From a virus (lineage: Duplodnaviria; Heunggongvirae; Uroviricota; Caudoviricetes): 24,655 bases of DNA. The notes under the pieces are model-generated. The model saw only the letters and a list, made by a program, of their open reading frames with translations. It did no database searches and was not told the DNA's origin. Location of the stretch: positions 64,001 to 88,655 of the IMG/VR virus record IMGVR_UViG_3300021387_001267, one strand, 5' to 3'. Shown one piece after another: positions 8,978-24,655 of this stretch. Within the stretch, counting starts at the first letter, position 1. Each line of letters opens with the position of its first letter. The translations under genes and the position numbers were made by a program.

Positions 8978-9523
8978 TTATCCCTTTGAATTATATCTGG
9001 CCCTTCTGGCAGCGTTCAGACTTGCTCGTCTTGCAGCCGATTCGGATTTCGTCATCTTCTTTTTCGGCTGCTGCTCAATATTACAGACCTCGATCAACGT
9101 CATTAGATGCCCGAAGTGCCACTTTTCACAGGGGTCAAATGGTATATTTAACGCGGTCATCCAGTAATAAATCACTTCATTGGTTATAACTTTCTGGTTA
9201 CCGCGCTTTTGTTGCTGTTTAATGGTTGTTGCGGTATTCGGATCTTGCATATAATCTAAAATAATTTTTAGTGTTTTATTATCGATCCCATAATAAACCG
9301 AAGGATTAACATTCTGCGTAAGCGTCATGCAGCGAATGTAATCGATCAGCTCGTCCCGCGTTTTCTCTTCCCGGGAAATGAATGGCTTATGCCATTTTGA
9401 TTCCCATCGCGCAATGCTGAGCAATGAATGCTCAAGCGTAATGGTATGGTCTTTTGTTATAATAAAGCGATTGGCCGCCGAATCATACAGTTCTTTTCCC
9501 GGGATTGTAACGGTCAGTGGCAT
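8978..9523 (-). CDS. Tail assembly chaperone-type protein 2
   Basis: TITLEHSLLSIARWESKWHKPF, DYIRCMT and EVIYYWMTALNIPF. It lies between the first chaperone gene and the tape measure region. Confidence 0.7.
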   Translation of the reverse strand: MPLTVTIPGKELYDSAANRFIITKDHTITLEHSLLSIARWESKWHKPFISREEKTRDELIDYIRCMTLTQNVNPSVYYGIDNKTLKIILDYMQDPNTATTIKQQQKRGNQKVITNEVIYYWMTALNIPFDPCEKWHFGHLMTLIEVCNIEQQPKKKMTKSESAARRASLNAARRARYNSKG

Positions 9524-9529
9524 TGCAGT

Positions 9530-10000
9530 TTAAGCCGTGGGCATAACGTCGCCGCCAAATCCCTCTTTACGAAGCTGCTCTTTGGCCGCTTCAAGGTCGG
9601 CTTCCGGCACATACGGCATAATGCCCGATGCGAAATCATCAAGAGATTCCTTACCGCTGAGAAGATCATAGACAAATGTGGAATAGGCCTGCGTTTGTCT
9701 AAACTTTTTGTACAGAGGCTTTCCGTTGTCATCTTCTTTCAAAAACAGTGTCGGATCATCTTTCGGACGGACACCGTAAGACCGATCGATAAGGAATTTA
9801 ATAAAATCAACGGCCTCTTTCTTGGAGATTTCGTCTTCTTTCTTATTGGCAAACAGCTTTTTCAAATGCGAAACAAGACCACCCTCTGCTTCATACTCGA
9901 GATCGATGTCCATGCATTCGATCTTGCTGAGGTTGAAATAAGCTTCCATTTCCTGCTCATTTCCGTCGTAGTCAGTATAGTGGATAATTTTCTTAAGCAT
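9530..10000 (-). CDS. Tail assembly chaperone protein 1
   Basis: MLKKIIHYTDYDGNE...YFNLSKIE, LIDRSYG and FRQTQAY. It follows the major tail gene. SD GAAAGGAG. Confidence 0.75.
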   Translation of the reverse strand: MLKKIIHYTDYDGNEQEMEAYFNLSKIECMDIDLEYEAEGGLVSHLKKLFANKKEDEISKKEAVDFIKFLIDRSYGVRPKDDPTLFLKEDDNGKPLYKKFRQTQAYSTFVYDLLSGKESLDDFASGIMPYVPEADLEAAKEQLRKEGFGGDVMPTA

Positions 10001-10022
10001 TTTGGGATTCTCCTTTCAATTT

Positions 10023-10068
10023 AAAAAAAGAGGGACTGCCAGCCCCCTTATTGCGTGCAGCCCCTCTT
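10023..10068 (-). terminator. Intrinsic terminator after the major tail gene
   Basis: Minus-strand AAGAGGGGCUGC / GCAGUCCCUCUU stem (12 bp, one G-U, 17-nt loop) running into a U tract. Confidence 0.7.
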
Positions 10069-10098: not shown

Positions 10099-10908
10099 TC
10101 AGCTGAGAATATAATATGTTTTCTGAGGATCGTAAGTCGAGTCGGAGGTCGGTGCATAGATATAGTTACCCGCTGTTCCAGTGCGCTCATAATATGTCGT
10201 TCCGGCCGTAAATTCCGTGCCTTCAAATTCTACATATCCTCCGGACGCGCTCTGCATAATACTTACCACTTCGCCGGGCAGGGGCAGACGCGGATCGGCA
10301 TTCTCGGTTCCGTAAAGAACATTCTTGATTGCCGTCATCTGGGCCTCGGTCGCCTTTGTGGAATCGATCTCCATATGGGCGGTTGCTTTGTACTTTGCAC
10401 CGGAAATATCGATGGCAACAGGAATCGTATCGATTTCCCAGCTGAATTCAACAGCTTCAGGGCTGTCGTTAATCGTCTGATGGTCCTCTTCGGACGGAGA
10501 TGCGGTTGCGCCGTATACCAGATGAATGATATAGCCGTAGTTCTCGTACTGGCTGTCGTTGCCGACAGTAGTTACGCAGCTGAAGCCAAACGGTACACGT
10601 GGCTGCTGGCCGACAGTTACGCCGGGAAGCAGGCTGGCCTCGCCGTTGCATTCAGCAAACTCATCCGGATACATATAAGCACTGATTGTAGCTTTAAAGT
10701 TTTCAGTGCTGCGAATGGACAGATATTTAATATCGTCTGCATAGATATCATTGGCTTCCGCGCCATCGGGAGATTCTGTAAATCCCGTAAGGCCGTTCCA
10801 CGCAACTCCCTTCGGATATGCGCCATTGGTCTGTTTATACAGTACGCCATTCTTGACGCCGGTATGATAAATCCGTTCGCCAACCTGGTCCCATTTAAGA
10901 ATAGCCAT
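10099..10908 (-). CDS. Major tail (tube) protein with short C-terminal extension
   Basis: MAILKWDQVGERIYHTGVKNGVLY...GVAWNGLT...YADDIKY, IHLVYGATASPSE and FSWE. SD AGGAGG. Confidence 0.9.
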   Translation of the reverse strand: MAILKWDQVGERIYHTGVKNGVLYKQTNGAYPKGVAWNGLTGFTESPDGAEANDIYADDIKYLSIRSTENFKATISAYMYPDEFAECNGEASLLPGVTVGQQPRVPFGFSCVTTVGNDSQYENYGYIIHLVYGATASPSEEDHQTINDSPEAVEFSWEIDTIPVAIDISGAKYKATAHMEIDSTKATEAQMTAIKNVLYGTENADPRLPLPGEVVSIMQSASGGYVEFEGTEFTAGTTYYERTGTAGNYIYAPTSDSTYDPQKTYYILS

Positions 10909-17833: not shown

Positions 17834-18640
17834 TTAGAGTTCTTTAAGCTTGTCGCGCCCGTTTTCCCAATAGTCCATTGGGTCCGAAAGATACTTTGCA
17901 TACTCAGTAAGCAATGACTTCTTATCATTCTTGTCCAGAATTACAGAGTTCTGAACGGCTTCTAGGAAGTTAATATCCCAGCGATCATTATCACGGGCGT
18001 TAGTCCAATAGTGCTCTTTAAGATCTTTCTCTTCATCAGTCTTGGAACTGCTGCGCATCTTCTTATATGCATCGTCAAGATCCTTGTCGGTAGCTCCAGA
18101 CTTTCCATCTTTGTAAGCTTTCAGCTCAGACTTGTCGTAGAAATATCTGGTGTCTCCAGATGAAGTTTTAACTTTTTCAAGATACTCCGGATCTTTAAGG
18201 CCTTTCTGCACTGGTTCATCGGCGTCATTAGGGATTTCGGTTGTCGCGCTGGCATCTGCCGCTTCTGAAACACCCTTATCGATTTTAGCTTTTAAAACCT
18301 CGTCGCCTAGCGACTCTTTAAATTTTTCAAACTCAGCCTTCGCACGCTCCGATTTTGCGTGAAGAGAATTAATCTTCCGCATTTTTTTATCATAGGCATA
18401 GATTCCTATGTCGTTCCAGCGCATTGCTCGACTTGGGGTATTAACAACTGCTTTCTTATATTTGTCTTCTGCATCTTTGGCGCGCTGCTCTAATTTGCGG
18501 TATCGCGCTTTACCGGCTTCGGTAAGCGTTCCGTCATAATTCTGGAATCGCCTTTTTCCCCACTCCTGACCAAGGATGCCGTAATGTGCAAGGTACTCAT
18601 CGTTCGGAACGAGTTCGGTTCCGGTATACACATAGCTCAT
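17834..18640 (-). CDS. Hypothetical protein with YLAHYGILGQEWG...YDGTLT motif
   Basis: 268-aa ORF with SD GGAGG and ATG overlapping the upstream stop. Paralogous motifs are shared with 18637-20109. Confidence 0.8.
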   Translation of the reverse strand: MSYVYTGTELVPNDEYLAHYGILGQEWGKRRFQNYDGTLTEAGKARYRKLEQRAKDAEDKYKKAVVNTPSRAMRWNDIGIYAYDKKMRKINSLHAKSERAKAEFEKFKESLGDEVLKAKIDKGVSEAADASATTEIPNDADEPVQKGLKDPEYLEKVKTSSGDTRYFYDKSELKAYKDGKSGATDKDLDDAYKKMRSSSKTDEEKDLKEHYWTNARDNDRWDINFLEAVQNSVILDKNDKKSLLTEYAKYLSDPMDYWENGRDKLKEL

Positions 18641-20109
18641 TTGTTCACCCCTCCGATCGTCTGCAGAAATTCATCAAGCGAAATCAAACCGTCATTTGTA
18701 TCGTCAATGTCAGAATGTTCGAGAGCGTCACTATTTCCATAGATCGCGTCAATGATTGCCATGTACTTTCCGCGATCGGCTGAGCTCCAGTTTTTGGACT
18801 CAACGCGTTTCTCGATGAGGTCATCCATATCTCGATGGAACTTAAGACGCGCATGATCGTCAGCTTTGTTGTAAGCGGCTTTGGCCTTTGAAGCAAGATC
18901 GCTGCTGTCTTTATATGCCTTCAGCTCATCCTTGTCATAGAAATATCGATCGCCGATCTTCTCGATGTATTTTGCGTTCTCTTTCTTCTCCGTATCCTGC
19001 TTAAGTTTTTCATAGCCTTTCTTGGCTTTTTCACTCTGTGCATTGCTACTGGAAGACCGCTCTATGTCTGCCATCTCTTTTTTCAGACTCGAGGCATCGG
19101 TATCTTTCGAAATGTTTTGCTTGGCCTTTTTATCTGACTTATTGCCGCTCTGCTTGTCAGTTGAACTGGTGCTGGTATCCTTTTTAACCTCTTCGCCCTC
19201 GGCTTTGCTGTCATTGCCATTTTGATCATTCTTCTTGGCAGTACTGACATCGGTCGGGGTCTTCGGCTTGTAGGTATCCTTTCCGATAATCCGCATCGGC
19301 TTCTTATCATCGTTAGGATCTTTTGCTGCGATAAGGGAGTTATAAGTTTCCGCTCCGACGTTATAAAGCTTCTTCAGACTGTCTGCACCTTTATAGACTG
19401 TGTCGATGGTATCGGCGACATCTTTTGCGGTCTTGACATACCGCATAATCTCATCGCGCCGAAAGTCTTTAAGCTGCCGATCCATTACGATCTTATCCTG
19501 AACTTCTTTCATTTCATCAGGGGTCAGAATATCTCGTGCCGAATAGATCTGCAGCGGGTGTTCGCGATAGTAATTCTTAAGCGCCTCTCTGGCAGCTTTT
19601 TCCTTGTCGGCTTCAAGCGCTTCCTGTTTTTTTCGCTCAGCCTCGGCAATAGCTTCTTTTGCAAGACGCTCGGATTCTTTCTTTGCTTCTTCTTCCTGAC
19701 GTTTCCGCTCTTTTGCAGCGGCCTTTTCGGCAGCTGCTTTTGCGCGGTTTTCGGAATGTTCCTGGATCTTCTGCTTAATATTCGCTCGGATTCCGCTGAG
19801 CTGTTTTCCGTTAATCGTTACATTAACTCCGGATTTTTTTATGCTTCCAACTTCAGTTACGTCTTTTCCGATACGAATATCGGTTTTTCCGTCTTTTTTC
19901 TCGGATTCGCTTCCTCTTTCAGGGCCAACTCCATAATGTTCTCGCCCAAGAGGTGTCAGACTTCCATCGTAGTTCTGATAACGACGTATACCCCATCTGC
20001 CGCCTTTTATCTGATGATGCGAAAGATAAGGCCCATCTGATCCAAACATCAGAACACGTTTTGCTTCATTGCCCTCGTGATGGGCCAGAAAATAGTTATT
20101 AGCGTACAT
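18637..20109 (-). CDS. Hypothetical Lys/Glu-rich protein with YLSHHQIKGGRWG...YDGSLT motif
   Basis: 490-aa ORF with charged coiled-coil segments and the RYFYDKDELKAY motif. Confidence 0.8.
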   Translation of the reverse strand: MYANNYFLAHHEGNEAKRVLMFGSDGPYLSHHQIKGGRWGIRRYQNYDGSLTPLGREHYGVGPERGSESEKKDGKTDIRIGKDVTEVGSIKKSGVNVTINGKQLSGIRANIKQKIQEHSENRAKAAAEKAAAKERKRQEEEAKKESERLAKEAIAEAERKKQEALEADKEKAAREALKNYYREHPLQIYSARDILTPDEMKEVQDKIVMDRQLKDFRRDEIMRYVKTAKDVADTIDTVYKGADSLKKLYNVGAETYNSLIAAKDPNDDKKPMRIIGKDTYKPKTPTDVSTAKKNDQNGNDSKAEGEEVKKDTSTSSTDKQSGNKSDKKAKQNISKDTDASSLKKEMADIERSSSSNAQSEKAKKGYEKLKQDTEKKENAKYIEKIGDRYFYDKDELKAYKDSSDLASKAKAAYNKADDHARLKFHRDMDDLIEKRVESKNWSSADRGKYMAIIDAIYGNSDALEHSDIDDTNDGLISLDEFLQTIGGVNK

Positions 20110-20130
20110 TTAGTAGCCCTCACTTCCTGT

Positions 20131-20173
20131 AAATAAAAAGGAGAGCCTCAAAGAATTTCTCAAAGGCTCTCCT
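20131..20173 (-). terminator. Intrinsic terminator closing the six-gene cassette
   Basis: Perfect 10-bp stem AGGAGAGCCU / AGGCUCUCCU followed by UUUUAUUU on the minus strand. Confidence 0.8.
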
Positions 20174-20182
20174 CAATGTATT

Positions 20183-20773
20183 TTAGTCGTTCATACCGGC
20201 AGCGCGAATCATCGAAATGTACTTCTTCAGTTCCTGCTTCTCGTAATCGGAAGCGGACTTATCAAAGAGGTTTTCGAGACTGGCAACCGCGCGGTCGCTG
20301 ATGCTGTGGCGACTGTAACCGCGATCGGAATACTCCGGTCCGTAATACGGATCTCCGCAATAGCTGCGATTCATAAATTCAGACGGGTATCCGGGATAGC
20401 CGGAATAGCCATCAGAATTGCTCTGATACCAGCCATGAACTCCGTAGTTCGGATTTCCGTAGCCGACATGATGCATTCCATAACTGCGATCGGAATAAAC
20501 GGCGCGCTCAGGCATACCGTAAGAAGTAATATGATACTGGCGGTAGGGTTCACCGTGCATGGAATATCCGCGCTCAGCATAGGCGCCGGGATCTTTCTTC
20601 TCTTCCTCGGCCTCGCACTCTTCGATACGGCAGCAGAGCTCATCATACAGATGGAATCCGTCAATAGCGGATTTGGTTTCGGCAGGAGTGAGGTCGTTTT
20701 TCTGCATGAGCTCGTCAAGACATTTCTCAACGGTTTTCTTCATGTTTTTCATGGATTCAGTTTTGAGTTCCAT
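20183..20773 (-). CDS. Cassette gene 6: helical ends with a central Gly/Tyr/Ser low-complexity region
   Basis: Likely start MELKTES at 20773 after GAGGAGG. Contains repeated GYS/SYG/GYG tripeptides. Confidence 0.8.
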   Translation of the reverse strand: MELKTESMKNMKKTVEKCLDELMQKNDLTPAETKSAIDGFHLYDELCCRIEECEAEEEKKDPGAYAERGYSMHGEPYRQYHITSYGMPERAVYSDRSYGMHHVGYGNPNYGVHGWYQSNSDGYSGYPGYPSEFMNRSYCGDPYYGPEYSDRGYSRHSISDRAVASLENLFDKSASDYEKQELKKYISMIRAAGMND

Positions 20774-20787
20774 TTTGAATTTCCTCC

Positions 20788-21240
20788 TCACTTCTTCGCG
20801 AACACGATATTCGCAGCCTGGACTAGAATCGGTGTGGTCCCGGTGTTACGAATACTGAGTGTCTGGCAGCAGCACTTCCAGATTGACACGTTTGCTGCTC
20901 TGGAGACATTGAAGTACTGCTCCACGGCAGCTGGCGTGACTTCCATTTCAGTCCCAGCCAGTGTATTTCCGTCAAGAGCAAACGCGACCGAAATCGGGCC
21001 GACGGTTTCTCCTTCAGGAATTGCAATGTTTGCACCGAAGTCTACCATGTAATTCACGGTAGCCGGTTTGCAGCAGCATCTCCTAATGCAGGAACCGGTA
21101 TCGATCCCTTTCATCAGAAATGCGCCACTGTCATCACGGTGCAGAATATAACCCATTGGGCATGACTGTGCCGTATCGGTGAAGACGATGGCCTCACCGG
21201 GGTTGACCGTCTGAACGGCAACACTAGTCCATTCAGCCAT
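20788..21240 (-). CDS. Cassette gene 5: beta-rich, Cys-containing protein, BclA C-terminal/C1q-TNF-like (tentative)
   Basis: QTVNPGEAIVFT...YMVDFGANIAIP...ISVAFALDG...NVSIWKCCCQTLSIRNTG: alternating beta-strand pattern. SD AAGGAGGT. Confidence 0.7.
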   Translation of the reverse strand: MAEWTSVAVQTVNPGEAIVFTDTAQSCPMGYILHRDDSGAFLMKGIDTGSCIRRCCCKPATVNYMVDFGANIAIPEGETVGPISVAFALDGNTLAGTEMEVTPAAVEQYFNVSRAANVSIWKCCCQTLSIRNTGTTPILVQAANIVFAKK

Positions 21241-21252
21241 CTCGGCACCTCC

Positions 21253-22095
21253 TTAACCCATGCAGCCGCAGCCTGTATTCTGTGCGCAGCAGTTAGGATT
21301 CTGTGTGCAGCAGTTAGGATTCTGGACCATATACGCGGGGCGCGGAGTCGGCAGGACATACTGCTCAACTTCGTTTGCAAGAGCCCGCTGACCGGCCAGA
21401 ATCTGAGCAATCTCGTCCTTGGATTCCGCACGGCGATTGGCATCATTAAGCGCAGCTGTGAGATTTGCGATCTGCTGATCCTTGCCCGCAAGCTCAAGCT
21501 GGCAGATCTTATCCATAACAGTCTGGATACCGGCATTCGTGGCGTTCACAATGGCCTGGGTATTGGCATTGTTCGCCATGAGCATGTTAGTAAAGCCTTC
21601 ATTCATAGCCGTGCGGTCAGCGCAGTTCTCGGTAGCAACTGTATACTTGATGTCGGCAAGACCGGCGCGATTCTCACAACAGCAGTTCTGAAGGCCTGCG
21701 GCCAGCGTGTTCATGCCCTGCATGGTAGCAGACTGATTGTTGTTCAGAGTCTGAAGTACATTTGCCTGCCCGTTGCAACGGGAAATTTCGGCATTCGCGA
21801 ATCCGGTGTTCAGAGCTCCAGTGATTCCGTTCAGGGCACCCATAATGGCCGACTGATCGAATCCGCGCTGAACATCCGTATTCTGCTGATTGCCCATCAT
21901 GAACGGAAGCATGCCACCCATTCCGCCGCCAAAGCCAAAGCCATTGCCCCAGCCGTTATTGGCAAACAGAAGCAGAATGATCAGCCACCAGGCACCATCG
22001 CCGAAGAAACCGCCGTTTCCCCAGCCGCCATTACCGCCATAAGGCTGAACGGGCATCGTGAAGTTTGTTCCGTTACCATTTTCAGAATAAGACAT
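21253..22095 (-). CDS. Cassette gene 4: Gly-rich N-terminus with a hydrophobic segment, Asn/Gln-rich coiled coil and Cys clusters
   Basis: GGWGNGGFFGDGAWWLIILLLFANNGWG, QNCCCEN and C-terminal QNPNCC repeats ending GCGCMG. SD AGGAGG. Confidence 0.85.
   Translation of the reverse strand: MSYSENGNGTNFTMPVQPYGGNGGWGNGGFFGDGAWWLIILLLFANNGWGNGFGFGGGMGGMLPFMMGNQQNTDVQRGFDQSAIMGALNGITGALNTGFANAEISRCNGQANVLQTLNNNQSATMQGMNTLAAGLQNCCCENRAGLADIKYTVATENCADRTAMNEGFTNMLMANNANTQAIVNATNAGIQTVMDKICQLELAGKDQQIANLTAALNDANRRAESKDEIAQILAGQRALANEVEQYVLPTPRPAYMVQNPNCCTQNPNCCAQNTGCGCMG
21277..21324. repeat. 21-nt tandem repeat, ~2.3 copies, encoding QNPNCC(T/A)
   Basis: attctgtgcgcagcagttagg / attctgtgtgcagcagttagg / attctg, with one mismatch. 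Confidence 0.9.
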
Positions 22096-22117
22096 TGTCT
22101 CATTCCTCCTAAAAATG

Positions 22118-22176
22118 TATTTATTCAGATCCTCGCCGTACTGCAGATAGGTTTGGAGGTGAACATCGAATAAATA
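22118..22176 (-). promoter_or_regulatory. Long imperfect hairpin immediately upstream of the gene-4 RBS
   Basis: UAUUUAUUC/GAAUAAAUA (9 bp), GAU/AUC and CCUC/GAGG helices; it ends 7 nt before AGGAGG. Confidence 0.55.
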
Positions 22177-22185
22177 AAAACTGAC

Positions 22186-22407
22186 CTAGCGTTTTCTGCC
22201 GGTCAGTCGATCTGCGATACTCGCAAACTGATTGAATTGCTCTTGTGTCATTTCGCCATTTTGAATTTTCTGTCGAACGATTTGTTCAGGACTCATTCCA
22301 GTAGGAGCAATCTGTCTTGCAAGATTCTGCAGTGCAGTATTCAAGTCGAAGTTCGATCCGAAACCCTGCTGCTGGTTCTGCTTATGAGAATTGAAGAATG
22401 GATTCAT
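22186..22407 (-). CDS. Cassette gene 3: small Gln/Asn-rich helical protein
   Basis: Likely start MNPFF at 22407 after AAGGAGG. Contains SPEQIVRQKIQNGEMTQEQFNQ. Confidence 0.75.
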   Translation of the reverse strand: MNPFFNSHKQNQQQGFGSNFDLNTALQNLARQIAPTGMSPEQIVRQKIQNGEMTQEQFNQFASIADRLTGRKR

Positions 22408-22420
22408 TAAAGCATCCTCC

Positions 22421-22879
22421 TTAGCCATTCAGAAGCTGCTCGAGCTTTCCGTTCATTCCGTCAACCGTATGAGTAAGTTTCTCAACCAATTCATATAGCT
22501 GCTTATGCTCGTCCTTTGTAACGAACTGAGCTTCAGGGCCGAATGGAACTTCTTCAACGGTATAGTGAAGAGCGTGAATTGGATTCTTAATATTCCCGTT
22601 TGCGTCGGTCTCGCGGCGGTAGATAATCGGCTCGTTCTTATCGTGAAAATACATCTCTTCACTCGGAGATGTCGGATGCGCGAGAACTTCGTCCATGCCG
22701 TTTACCCACACAATATTGCATTTGGGTCCTGCCGCCGCATTCAGAACCGGATTTGTACCAGGATTCTGAACGGTACTTCTTAAACCGGAAGATGGCACTG
22801 GCGTAGGAAGAACCGGCTGTTGAAATGCTCCTGTGCTTGTTCCGATTGCTGGTGTTGGATTAACTCCGAAATTGCTCAT
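22421..22879 (-). CDS. Cassette gene 2: Pro/Gln-rich N-terminus, IVWVNG domain, C-terminal coiled coil
   Basis: 152 aa with SD AAAGGAG. The ATG abuts the upstream stop. Confidence 0.8.
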   Translation of the reverse strand: MSNFGVNPTPAIGTSTGAFQQPVLPTPVPSSGLRSTVQNPGTNPVLNAAAGPKCNIVWVNGMDEVLAHPTSPSEEMYFHDKNEPIIYRRETDANGNIKNPIHALHYTVEEVPFGPEAQFVTKDEHKQLYELVEKLTHTVDGMNGKLEQLLNG

Positions 22880-23263
22880 TTATTGATCTCCTTTCGTCCA
22901 ATAATACGATGGCATTTCGTTTCCGGAATCCCACGTATCATAGTAATCACCGCCCTCCACGGTAACGACATGCTGGTCCAATACTAATAAATAACAGCCA
23001 TCCGGATGATCATGACAAAAGTCCTTCACCGTATATCGTCCGAGATAGCTGTCTGGTATGAATTTTCTTATGTAGCCAAGTCTGGCCAAATACGCTCCCC
23101 AGGTCGCATTTCCGGAAGGCATGTCTTTTGCCAGAAATCCCTGAAATGACGTGGCGGCATACACATGATCCCAATCCTGATTTGTAAGTTTACAGATTGC
23201 ACGTATGGTACAATCACCGACAAATCGTCCTTTCGGATTTGGGTTATAAAATTGAAAAGCCAT
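22880..23263 (-). CDS. Cassette gene 1: small papain-like (Cys-His-Asp) peptidase-like protein
   Basis: GDCTIRAI (Cys at a helix N-terminus), HVVTV (His on a strand) and DTWDSG (acidic residue): spacing typical of C39-like/papain-fold enzymes. Confidence 0.65.
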   Translation of the reverse strand: MAFQFYNPNPKGRFVGDCTIRAICKLTNQDWDHVYAATSFQGFLAKDMPSGNATWGAYLARLGYIRKFIPDSYLGRYTVKDFCHDHPDGCYLLVLDQHVVTVEGGDYYDTWDSGNEMPSYYWTKGDQ

Positions 23264-23649: not shown

Positions 23650-24075
23650 CTATAGCCTCCATGGACAAGTATCATACAGCGTTCTTTCGATCGGTTCTTC
23701 AAGACCGAGGAGCGATATGTCGCCAAAGTGTATCGCCTGGTGTGTTGTGAACGAAGTGCATACGACTAATTCAGGATCCATTAGAACATCGGAGAGATTA
23801 GCAACGTCTTCGAGTTCTATTGGATTCATATGATGTATGTATATCTTTTCTCCAGGCTCAAATGGGCGTTCGCTACATGCCAGATCGAATCCTCCATCTC
23901 GAATAATGATCTCGCGTCTGAAGTTTCGCCATTCTGTTGATGTATAAAACTTCTGATTTAGCCAGCGCTCTTTTCCGAACGTTTCATGGCCAACTGTTCC
24001 GCCGATTCGCAAATATTCGTAACGCTCCTTAAATGTAGGAAGTTTAATGAGTTCAGTATAGGTACGGATCTTCAT
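23650..24075 (-). CDS. HNH endonuclease (packaging-associated, HK97 gp74-like)
   Basis: FYTSTEWRNFRREIIIRDG, IHHMNPI and HQAIH. Likely start MKIRTY at 24075 after GGAGGA. Confidence 0.85.
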   Translation of the reverse strand: MKIRTYTELIKLPTFKERYEYLRIGGTVGHETFGKERWLNQKFYTSTEWRNFRREIIIRDGGFDLACSERPFEPGEKIYIHHMNPIELEDVANLSDVLMDPELVVCTSFTTHQAIHFGDISLLGLEEPIERTLYDTCPWRL

Positions 24076-24409
24076 ACTCTTCCTCCGTAGGAATCGTGTA
24101 AGAACGCATTGCGGCGATCGCCTTACGATACAGGTCTTCTCTCGTCTTTTCCGAGTCAATAGCTTCTGTTTTCGCTCGAAGTAGTTCGTTTTCCTTCTGA
24201 AGCTTCTCCATTTCCTCGCGTTGTTTTATCGATCCAGCCTTTAAGAAATGGACGTATTCTGCAGATGACGCTGTGCCATTTCGTATTCGCTCTTCTACAG
24301 CATCATATACGAGTGCAATTAGTTGATTCTCGCGTTCTTCCGGCGATCCTGCTGGCGGAAATCGAATATCTGAAAAATTGTCTACAACTTCTTTTTTCTT
24401 AGATGCCAC
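24053..24409 (-). CDS. Putative terminase small subunit (first gene of the operon)
   Basis: EERENQLIAL...GTASSAEYVHFLKAGS followed by a coiled coil. First gene, next to the HNH gene. Likely GTG start at 24409 after GGAGGTG. Confidence 0.55.
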   Translation of the reverse strand: MASKKKEVVDNFSDIRFPPAGSPEERENQLIALVYDAVEERIRNGTASSAEYVHFLKAGSIKQREEMEKLQKENELLRAKTEAIDSEKTREDLYRKAIAAMRSYTIPTEEEYEDPYLY

Positions 24410-24454
24410 GCAGCAGTTCACCTCCATTCTTTGCTACGTATGTGCCTTGATGCC

Positions 24455-24608
24455 TTTTAGGTGTGTATGGATGGTGAAGGAAATGTGGAGGGATGACAGG
24501 AGATCAGAGAACCACAAGTCAGAGAGCTTGAAAGGAGAATCCCGGCATTTGGCCAGATCGTTCTATAAAGGAGGATAGAACACACGAAGAATCCATACAC
24601 ACGTAAAA
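24455..24608 (-). ncRNA. Candidate structured leader/sRNA with multiple anti-Shine-Dalgarno motifs
   Basis: 12-bp perfect inverted repeat (24461-24472 / 24591-24602) extended by 5 bp. It encloses a 7-bp hairpin with loop CCUCCUUU and four more CUCC/UUCC motifs. Confidence 0.6.
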
Positions 24609-24655
24609 AACATCAAAACCAAATATCAAATTGTCCCTCCGGGGCAAATTTTAGG

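Follow-up and report, generated by a model that had tools for sequence, protein, structure and literature searches.

In the immI operon of phages P1 and P7, the c4 antisense RNA is encoded in the leader on the same strand as its target, is processed out of the transcript, and blocks the ribosome-binding region of a downstream gene; its targets lie ~100-200 nt downstream, and the gene controlled is an antirepressor. In Firmicutes, the S. aureus RNAIII and the RsaE/RoxS RNAs expose unpaired C-rich or UCCC seeds and loops that mask Shine-Dalgarno (SD) sequences, with several targets per seed. These RNAs are chromosomal, possess their own promoters and terminators, and use seeds of ~6-10 nt. In the gene 1.1/1.2 system of phage T7, a 3' end processed by RNase III pairs with an upstream ribosome-binding site (RBS). 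At the DNA level, the cosB site of lambda-like phages functions in double-stranded form, bound by IHF and the small subunit of terminase, and we know of no relation between cosB and a distant RBS. Siphoviruses need the major tail protein in far larger amounts than the tail assembly chaperone (TAC) or the tape measure protein; the means so far known for this are terminators, weak initiation and programmed frameshifting.

The window (the whole stretch of DNA analysed, 24,655 nt) is the final 24.6 kb of an 88,655-bp viral contig, with every gene on the minus strand. The phage DNA is carried by ruminant gut metagenomes, and the phage group links Lactococcus 1706-like phages, Faecalibacterium phages and several actinobacteriophage clusters (bioRxiv 10.1101/842583). 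A leader element located between the cos end and the first gene contains a motif complementary to the RBS of the TAC gene, and the features concerned are the following.

9530-10000, minus strand: TAC gene, 156 aa (PF23803 Phage_TAC_17; phrog_4282).
10004-10019, minus strand: TAC translation initiation region, UUGAAAGGAGAAUCCC, ending 3 nt before the AUG.
10022-10049, minus strand: terminator-like GC hairpin and U run, placed after the major tail protein gene and before the TAC RBS, read from the sequence.
10099-10908, minus strand: major tail protein gene, upstream of the terminator (phrog_2645, E 5.5e-94).
24053-24409, minus strand: gene 1 (phrog_4259), the first gene after cos; an HNH endonuclease gene is next.
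24591-24616 and 24447-24472, minus strand: arms of the closing stem, a 26-nt inverted repeat around a 118-nt pyrimidine-rich interior.
24528-24543, minus strand: seed, the anti-RBS motif GGGAUUCUCCUUUCAA, from direct reading and a repeat search.
24560-24581, minus strand: internal hairpin 1 of the predicted fold, whose loop displays CCUCCUUU.
24633-24655, minus strand: physical left genome end (cos side), starting CCTAAAATTT followed by a small GC hairpin, from contig ends and homology with phage 1706.

The best explanation of the 16-nt match, judging from the sequence comparisons, is that it represents one instance of a conserved antisense relationship with the TAC RBS. At a probability of about 0.55, an antisense seed embedded in the leader or derived from it would mask the TAC SD and tune chaperone synthesis, with further lineage-specific targets outside the late region.

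The identity of the target gene is supported by both family and position. The TAC protein matches PF23803 (E 2.8e-21; 76.8 bits against a cut-off of 27), and its gene is flanked by those for the major tail protein and the tape measure protein. Relatives keep the same layout upstream of it, with a hairpin, a T run and then the RBS. The conservation of the TAC RBS in itself is not exceptional. The end of the TAC reading frame precedes by 6 nt the ATG of the ORF that follows (8978-9523; phrog_4338, without a Pfam match).

Direct reading and the repeat search bear out the complementarity reported in the initial annotation. Positions 24528-24543 and 10004-10019 form a perfect 16-nt inverted repeat, 100% complementary and 14,508 nt apart; no other perfect inverted repeat in the window is as long, the runners-up measuring 14 and 13 nt. 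The leader reads GGGATTCTCCTTTCAA on the minus strand (24543-24528), and minus strand 10019-10004 reads TTGAAAGGAGAATCCC, then AAA, then ATG; the duplex covers the TAC SD and ends 3 nt before the AUG, the arrangement expected of an SD-covering antisense regulator. The same annotation had placed the chance of such a match at ~4e-6 per comparison, which is much too optimistic. RBSs of the GAAAGGAGAAT type are common in this genome, so the earlier estimate was far too small, and realistic nulls give p ~0.01. Permutation of RBS columns with position-specific composition kept puts the average best match at 12.3 nt, with P(>=16) = 0.009-0.013, and leaders from other phages reach 13-15 nt, once 18 nt, against unrelated RBS sets; the 16-mer by itself is therefore only modestly significant. 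The single-genome p and these cross-genome matches speak for a chance match between an SD-complementary motif and one of ~120 strong RBSs. Chance is contradicted by the family-wide co-variation, specificity and rank statistics presented below and by a Fisher-combined per-genome p of 4e-6 (under a somewhat lenient null), and we consider it extremely improbable.

Across this genome, the 156 CTCC-containing sites have a mean complement of 7.5 nt and a maximum of 13 nt. Comparing the best match in the genome with all CTCC sites largely reflects the rarity of the 8-mer core and is not the main evidence, and runs allowing G.U pairs are a poor statistic, with a cross-genome background of 19-21. The weaker pairings between other leader motifs and further RBSs, also listed initially, are present as matches of 7-10 nt but equal the CTCC-site background and are therefore uninformative. 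Likewise, the best RBS complement of hairpin 1 in this genome is 10 nt, equal to background.

Structurally, the leader is a long-stem element of ~170 nt (minus strand, 24447-24616). It folds with z = -4.84 as the minus and z = -2.15 as the plus strand, and the consensus stem of seven relatives comprises 28 pairs with compensatory changes in 11. Closing stems of 27-35 bp are retained across 19 elements despite unrelated arm sequences, and the element lies 40-210 nt from the physical left (cos) end. The seed, which has the core CUCCUUUC and here reads GGGAUUCUCCUUUCAA, is the reverse complement of the TAC SD region; a 12-nt seed core, GAUUCUCCUUUC, shows no variation in the close clade, and GATTCTCCTTTC is the sole invariant interior block in the alignment of seven relatives. 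In the predicted fold the seed is mostly unpaired, with a predicted accessibility of 0.63 versus 0.53 for the remaining interior (p = 0.018). A covariance model matches the element in further contigs of relatives, one human gut phage among them. Hairpin 1 has equivalents in L005-L007 as well as in phages 1706 and P092 of Lactococcus. A shared layout, consisting of a GC hairpin, the long stem, a hairpin with a CCUCC loop and a CUCCUUU motif, is seen in Lactococcus phages 1706 and P092 and in two human gut phage contigs, and is present twice in Arthrobacter phage GantcherGoblin. In the latter (ON970564.1, 1-437; locus L101), two successive long-stem elements occupy the left end, and the second encloses AACTCCTTTCAAGAG, near-identical to the rumen-phage motif, yet the complement to the chaperone RBS is 7 nt. 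In Rfam 15, no family, C4 antisense RNA included, reached its gathering score in the window. At permissive thresholds the sole match in 24380-24655 was MIR2646, a plant microRNA model (12 bits, E 2.3), and a search of the leader DNA against a phage genome collection gave no match.

The relationship between leader and RBS was then followed across lineages. In a first pass over ten whole contigs of relatives, the TAC RBS was the best RBS partner of the leader in G000, G001 and G004 and tied for best in G002. Genome-wide, RBSs outside the late region outmatched the TAC RBS in G003, G005 and G010. Leaders fitted the RBS set of their own genome better than foreign sets (p = 0.01 for perfect runs; p = 0.0004 for local score). 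Because the best partner differed among the ten whole genomes, the motif was at that stage read as a generic anti-RBS motif, a reading that TerL-anchored loci, a late-gene control and a ranking within the late region led us to revise. The second pass used TerL as an anchor with 10-kb flanks and added 80 further loci out of >570 linked to TerL; gene 1 and the chaperone gene were both present in 34 of these 80. Together with the whole-genome set, the TerL loci provided 18 non-redundant lineages with a long-stem leader. In the resulting matrix of leaders against TAC RBSs, matched pairs averaged 10.9 nt versus 8.6 nt for mismatched pairs (p<5e-6), a value reached in 0 of 200,000 permutations. When the matrix was cut down to 12 lineages, with each variant represented once and negatives included, the averages were 10.7 versus 7.9 nt (p ~5e-6) and the duplex energies -19.9 versus -15.7 kcal/mol (p ~5e-6), and the strict best match was the lineage's own TAC RBS in nine of the 12 rows. 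Flank changes are lineage-specific and matched between leader and TAC RBS, as listed here (leader first, RBS second).

Window: GGGATTCTCCTTTCAA with TTGAAAGGAGAATCCC.
L113: TCTCCTTTCAAGA with TCTTGAAAGGAGA.
L136: CTTTCTCCTTTCAA with TTGAAAGGAGAAAG.
L139: CTTTTCTCCTTTTC with GAAAAGGAGAAAAG.
L145: TTTTTTCTCCTTTC with GAAAGGAGAAAAAA.
L179: CTCCCTTTAA with TTAAAGGGAG.
L126: GCTCCTTTC with GAAAGGAGC.
Lactococcus phage 1706: TTCTCCTTTA with TAAAGGAGAA; paired variant (RBS first) TAAAGGAG with CTCCTTTA.
Explicit paired variants (RBS first, leader second): ...GGAGAATCCC with GGGATTCTCC...; GGAGAAAG with CTTTCTCC; GGAGAAAAAA with TTTTTTCTCC; AAAGGGAG with CTCCCTTT; GGAGC with GCTCC.

The complement offered by the leader reaches 12-16 nt, and 20 nt in phage 1706; in phage P092 the pairing extends over 17 bp with one bulged base. 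Across lineages, the TAC RBS lies on the same strand as the leader and 9-18 kb downstream of it. This relationship is specific to the TAC gene. As controls, nine further late genes were put through the analysis (HNH, TerL, portal and capsid; three head-tail genes; the major tail protein; and the post-chaperone gene). Their matrix diagonals measure 5.7-6.8 nt with p values of 0.13-0.99 and show no excess; among the 10 late genes, TAC alone is significant (11.0 nt, p<5e-5). When the late-region RBSs from the leader to +22 kb were ranked (13-36 per lineage), the TAC RBS was the unique best partner in 13 of 19 lineages, against an expectation of 0.84; the better partners in G003, G005 and G010 are located outside this ranked region. 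The pattern is that of compensatory conservation in an antisense regulator, with matched pairs exceeding mismatched ones, several distinct matched variants and specificity for TAC. Co-variation in relatives, named beforehand as a check on the initial annotation, is thus positive across lineages and TAC-specific among 10 late genes. The accompanying proposal that each loop is addressed to one late gene is not supported, since the other motifs reach 7-10 nt and the nine other late-gene RBSs show no matched excess.

The correspondence has exceptions. The closest relative, G001, carries a C-to-G change in the RBS without compensation in the leader, and the TAC complement is absent from L117, L124, G006, G007 and the actinophages SheRa and GantcherGoblin. 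L005 and L047 possibly represent one phage with a matched C-to-T change; their contigs are non-overlapping, and the pair is left out of the count.

Part of these data could also be expected of an anti-SD element that has no dedicated target. Its 8-nt core CUCCUUUC, equal to the 3' tail of Firmicutes 16S rRNA, would mimic that tail in order to act in cis on gene 1, to soak up SD sequences in general or to bind a protein, and TAC would rank best in the late region as the most canonical strong RBS. The core is conserved in Lactococcus, gut and Arthrobacter phages, RBSs of the GAAAGGAGAAT type are common here, unrelated leaders find long matches in foreign RBS sets, other RBSs exceed TAC genome-wide in three genomes, and further seed matches fall on the RBSs of three genes of this genome, located at coordinates 4467, 30199 and 2605. 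However, such an element leaves unexplained why the flanks of each leader follow those of its own TAC RBS and why the nine other late genes lack any excess. It also does not account for co-occurring core variants, namely CUCCCUUU with GGGAG, CUCCUUUU with AAAAGGAG, GCUCC with GGAGC, and CUCCUUUA with UAAAGGAG. We therefore judge an untargeted element unlikely.

Beyond the late region, the seed has a candidate partner near the other end of the genome. G000:2462-2605(-), outside the window, encodes a 47-aa hydrophobic membrane peptide with a charged C-terminus, reminiscent of holins or type I toxins. Between this gene's RBS and start (G000:2604-2630) and the leader seed region, 25 of 27 positions are complementary, and the extended predicted duplex with the leader amounts to about -64 kcal/mol. 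The gene corresponds to locus L002:1359-1502, where a palindrome overlaps the AUG. A search for relatives of the 199-aa gene adjoining the 47-aa ORF found none, and a degenerate pattern for the RBS of the 47-aa gene recovered leader copies only. A second full element near G000:2600 was considered and rejected; only the interior is similar, and only in part, with a covariance-model E of 0.14 and without a significant fold.

The hairpin-1 region of phage 1706 (EU081845.1, 65-150) is perfectly complementary over 20 nt to the RBS of orf27 and over 17 nt to that of orf52, genes with no function assigned (complement positions 25629 and 36723; loci L097, L194 and L195), and it also has complements of 12-14 nt to two more genes. 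Many phage 1706 RBSs share the cassette GTCTT(T)AAGGAGGAC, itself a small hairpin with the SD in its loop, which suggests possible loop-loop contacts. G000:995-3531, beyond the window, and sense coordinate 2717 of G003 encode a set of paralogues that share a membrane segment at the N-terminus and a conserved motif at the C-terminus. This paralogous membrane-protein family sits near the right genome end, and several of its genes, together with nearby small membrane-peptide genes, use an RBS of the GAAAGGAGAATC type.

Several observations bear on whether the relationship acts in RNA and on which strand. Among mismatches flanking the runs between leader and TAC RBS, 28 are of G.U type and 15 of C.A type, and the lengths of A and T runs as well as the boundary bases match exactly. 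In the closing stem, the window clade has ~20 G.U versus 4 C.A on the coding strand, and all lineages together have 33 G.U versus 23 C.A, with the order reversed in the L020-L037 clade; the count is ambiguous overall. The 16-bp hybrid is calculated at -26 kcal/mol, with opening costs of 4.7 and 4.0 kcal/mol, and the 16S rRNA tail on the same TAC RBS is weaker at -12.7 kcal/mol. One bovine rumen RNA-seq run, X18, yielded a 175-nt contig equal to 24457-24631 with one mismatch and carrying no strand or end information. X18 is the only RNA run with the element and was found by a query containing it; on 15.6 kb of phage, this contig is the sole near-identical piece, which gives a weak hint of a stable RNA. 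Metatranscriptomes X31-X33, taken from what may be the source sample of this DNA, contain next to none of the phage's words and are informative in neither direction.

The strand counts also touch on a reading in which the opposite strand is functional. A short antisense transcript toward the genome end would carry RBS-like cassettes; these would either lure away ribosomes or a translational repressor that binds RBSs, or serve to initiate a micro-ORF. The plus strand does read as several strong SD-like cassettes and is identical at 25 of 27 positions to a real RBS and start (G000:2604-2630); the covariance model scores L020 higher on the antisense strand, and C.A exceeds G.U in the L020-L037 closing stem. 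Against this, all phage genes lie on the minus strand, the plus-strand fold is weaker (z = -2.15), and in the window clade the G.U count points to the coding strand. The cassettes are not followed by any conserved start codon or ORF; five elements have none at all, and the remaining ones mostly have short unrelated frames of <=~35 codons. The antisense micro-ORF behind the plus-strand SD-like cassettes was dropped as unconserved, and a functional opposite strand appears very unlikely.

The position of the element raises a further question, that of a role as DNA. Most of the 44 gene-1 relatives fetched have the gene 200-350 nt from a contig end, many independent contigs start at the homologous base, CCT(A/C)AAA, and a goat-gut DNA contig terminates exactly at 24655. 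The left end of Lactococcus phage 1706 is homologous to the window end, and its right end finishes CATCGCCCTGTCT. From the shared contig ends and the homology with phage 1706, the window end is therefore the physical left (cos) end. The published 3' cohesive end of phage 1706 is GCCCTGTCT (PMC4110766), and by homology the 3' overhang in the present phage would be about GCGCCGGTT. Junction-spanning contigs (L004, L006-L008 and L010) read a GC hairpin, ~20 nt, CATCGCGCCGGTT and then CCTAAAA. In many cos phages, the gene-1 homologue adjoins an HNH gene close to the left end, as the first gene or one of the first few. Gene 1 (phrog_4259) has no Pfam match, and no small terminase subunit was identified. 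The distance from gene 1 to TerL is 6.8 kb here versus ~2 kb in most relatives with a TerL 71-74% identical, and the wider gap therefore indicates a block of accessory genes inserted in the packaging region (17834-23263), mostly without family matches.

The leader thus takes the place of cosB, flanked by the cohesive end and by the first gene on the packaging side. The element could be a packaging recognition region, and the leader and TAC sites could be inverted copies of the site of one dsDNA-binding protein (a terminase-associated protein, the gene-1 protein or a late regulator) whose specificity both would track. The location exactly between cohesive end and first gene, as in lambda cosB, fits this, as do the pyrimidine tracts on both sides of cos in several relatives, the lack of an upstream promoter in our scan and the ambiguous strand test of the closing stem; two sites bound by one evolving protein would also be expected to co-vary. 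However, the matched register shifts by lineage (5' extension in L113; 3' extension in L139 and L145) with the SD always covered, which suits base pairing better than a fixed protein site. Run lengths and boundary bases match exactly, G.U-type mismatches exceed C.A-type beside the runs, and a compensatory stem of 27-36 bp far exceeds the length of a protein half-site. A regulator site over the SD, downstream of any promoter position, would moreover have no obvious role. Binding by a common protein is in our view improbable.

For the antisense seed, the following course of events is proposed. A scan for sigma-70-like promoters upstream of gene 1 found none, and the element begins ~40 nt from the DNA end, with a GC hairpin preceding cos in the spanning contigs; a transcript would therefore need to start across the joined cos or read through it. 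Most likely, the element is transcribed with the late operon, and it may be released as a stable RNA, since the 27-36 bp stem looks like an RNase III substrate. Either the late transcript or a leader processed at the long stem would expose the seed. Pairing over 9-18 kb within one transcript is kinetically implausible, so a trans-acting or processed form is assumed. The seed would pair with the TAC initiation region, directly past the terminator that follows the major tail protein gene. Most late transcripts would end at or before that terminator, and leader copies would therefore outnumber the read-through transcripts with the TAC RBS. Pairing would mask the SD, probably repressing rather than activating translation, and the synthesis of the chaperone and of coupled tail genes would be kept low or delayed; in this way, pairing would control tail assembly. 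The 47-aa membrane-peptide gene may be an extra, lineage-specific partner of the seed in this genome.

A broader scheme is more tentative, with the odds rather against it. It would have a multi-seed regulatory RNA of 1706-related phages from rumen, gut and dairy Firmicutes programme TAC together with lineage-specific genes (the 47-aa peptide; orf27 and orf52 of phage 1706) by extended anti-RBS pairing, and this RNA may be made only after cohesive-end joining. If the RNA does need joined ends, circularisation or concatemer formation would be coupled to tail-assembly stoichiometry.

Within the library searched, no paper describing such a phage antisense or late-leader RNA was found. If true, virion assembly would be subject to a new level of control, exerted by a conserved leader RNA that masks the TAC RBS over a distance of 9-18 kb, and this RNA would rank among the rare antisense regulators that are encoded by phages and have a structural gene as their conserved target. 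The element has no annotation so far and is widespread in ruminant and human gut phages. It is also found in the cultured Lactococcus phages 1706 and P092, which makes the prediction accessible to ordinary genetics.

Compared with the described systems, the present element resembles each in one respect and departs from it in others. It shares with c4 the logic of a leader-encoded, same-strand RNA masking an RBS. Unlike c4, its target is the TAC gene, 9-18 kb away, its closing stem measures ~30 bp, it sits at the cos end, and it has no Rfam-level similarity to C4. With the SD-masking small RNAs of Firmicutes it has in common a pyrimidine-rich unpaired seed complementary to SD regions. In contrast to RNAIII and RsaE/RoxS, it is phage-encoded, lies in a leader next to cos, offers a complement of 12-16 nt and has a virion-assembly gene as its conserved target. 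Target, distance and cos location are new relative to both c4 and these small RNAs. The likeness to T7 1.1/1.2 is that a processed segment of a polycistronic phage mRNA would pair with the RBS of another gene, with RNase III cleavage of the present stem suggested by its length only, whereas the T7 pairing is local, spans a short distance and involves no conserved leader element. Finally, the element has the position of a lambda-like cosB, between the cohesive-end cleavage site and the first gene, together with repeated motifs and inverted symmetry, but differs from cosB in its compensatory stem of 27-36 bp and in its co-variation with the TAC RBS.
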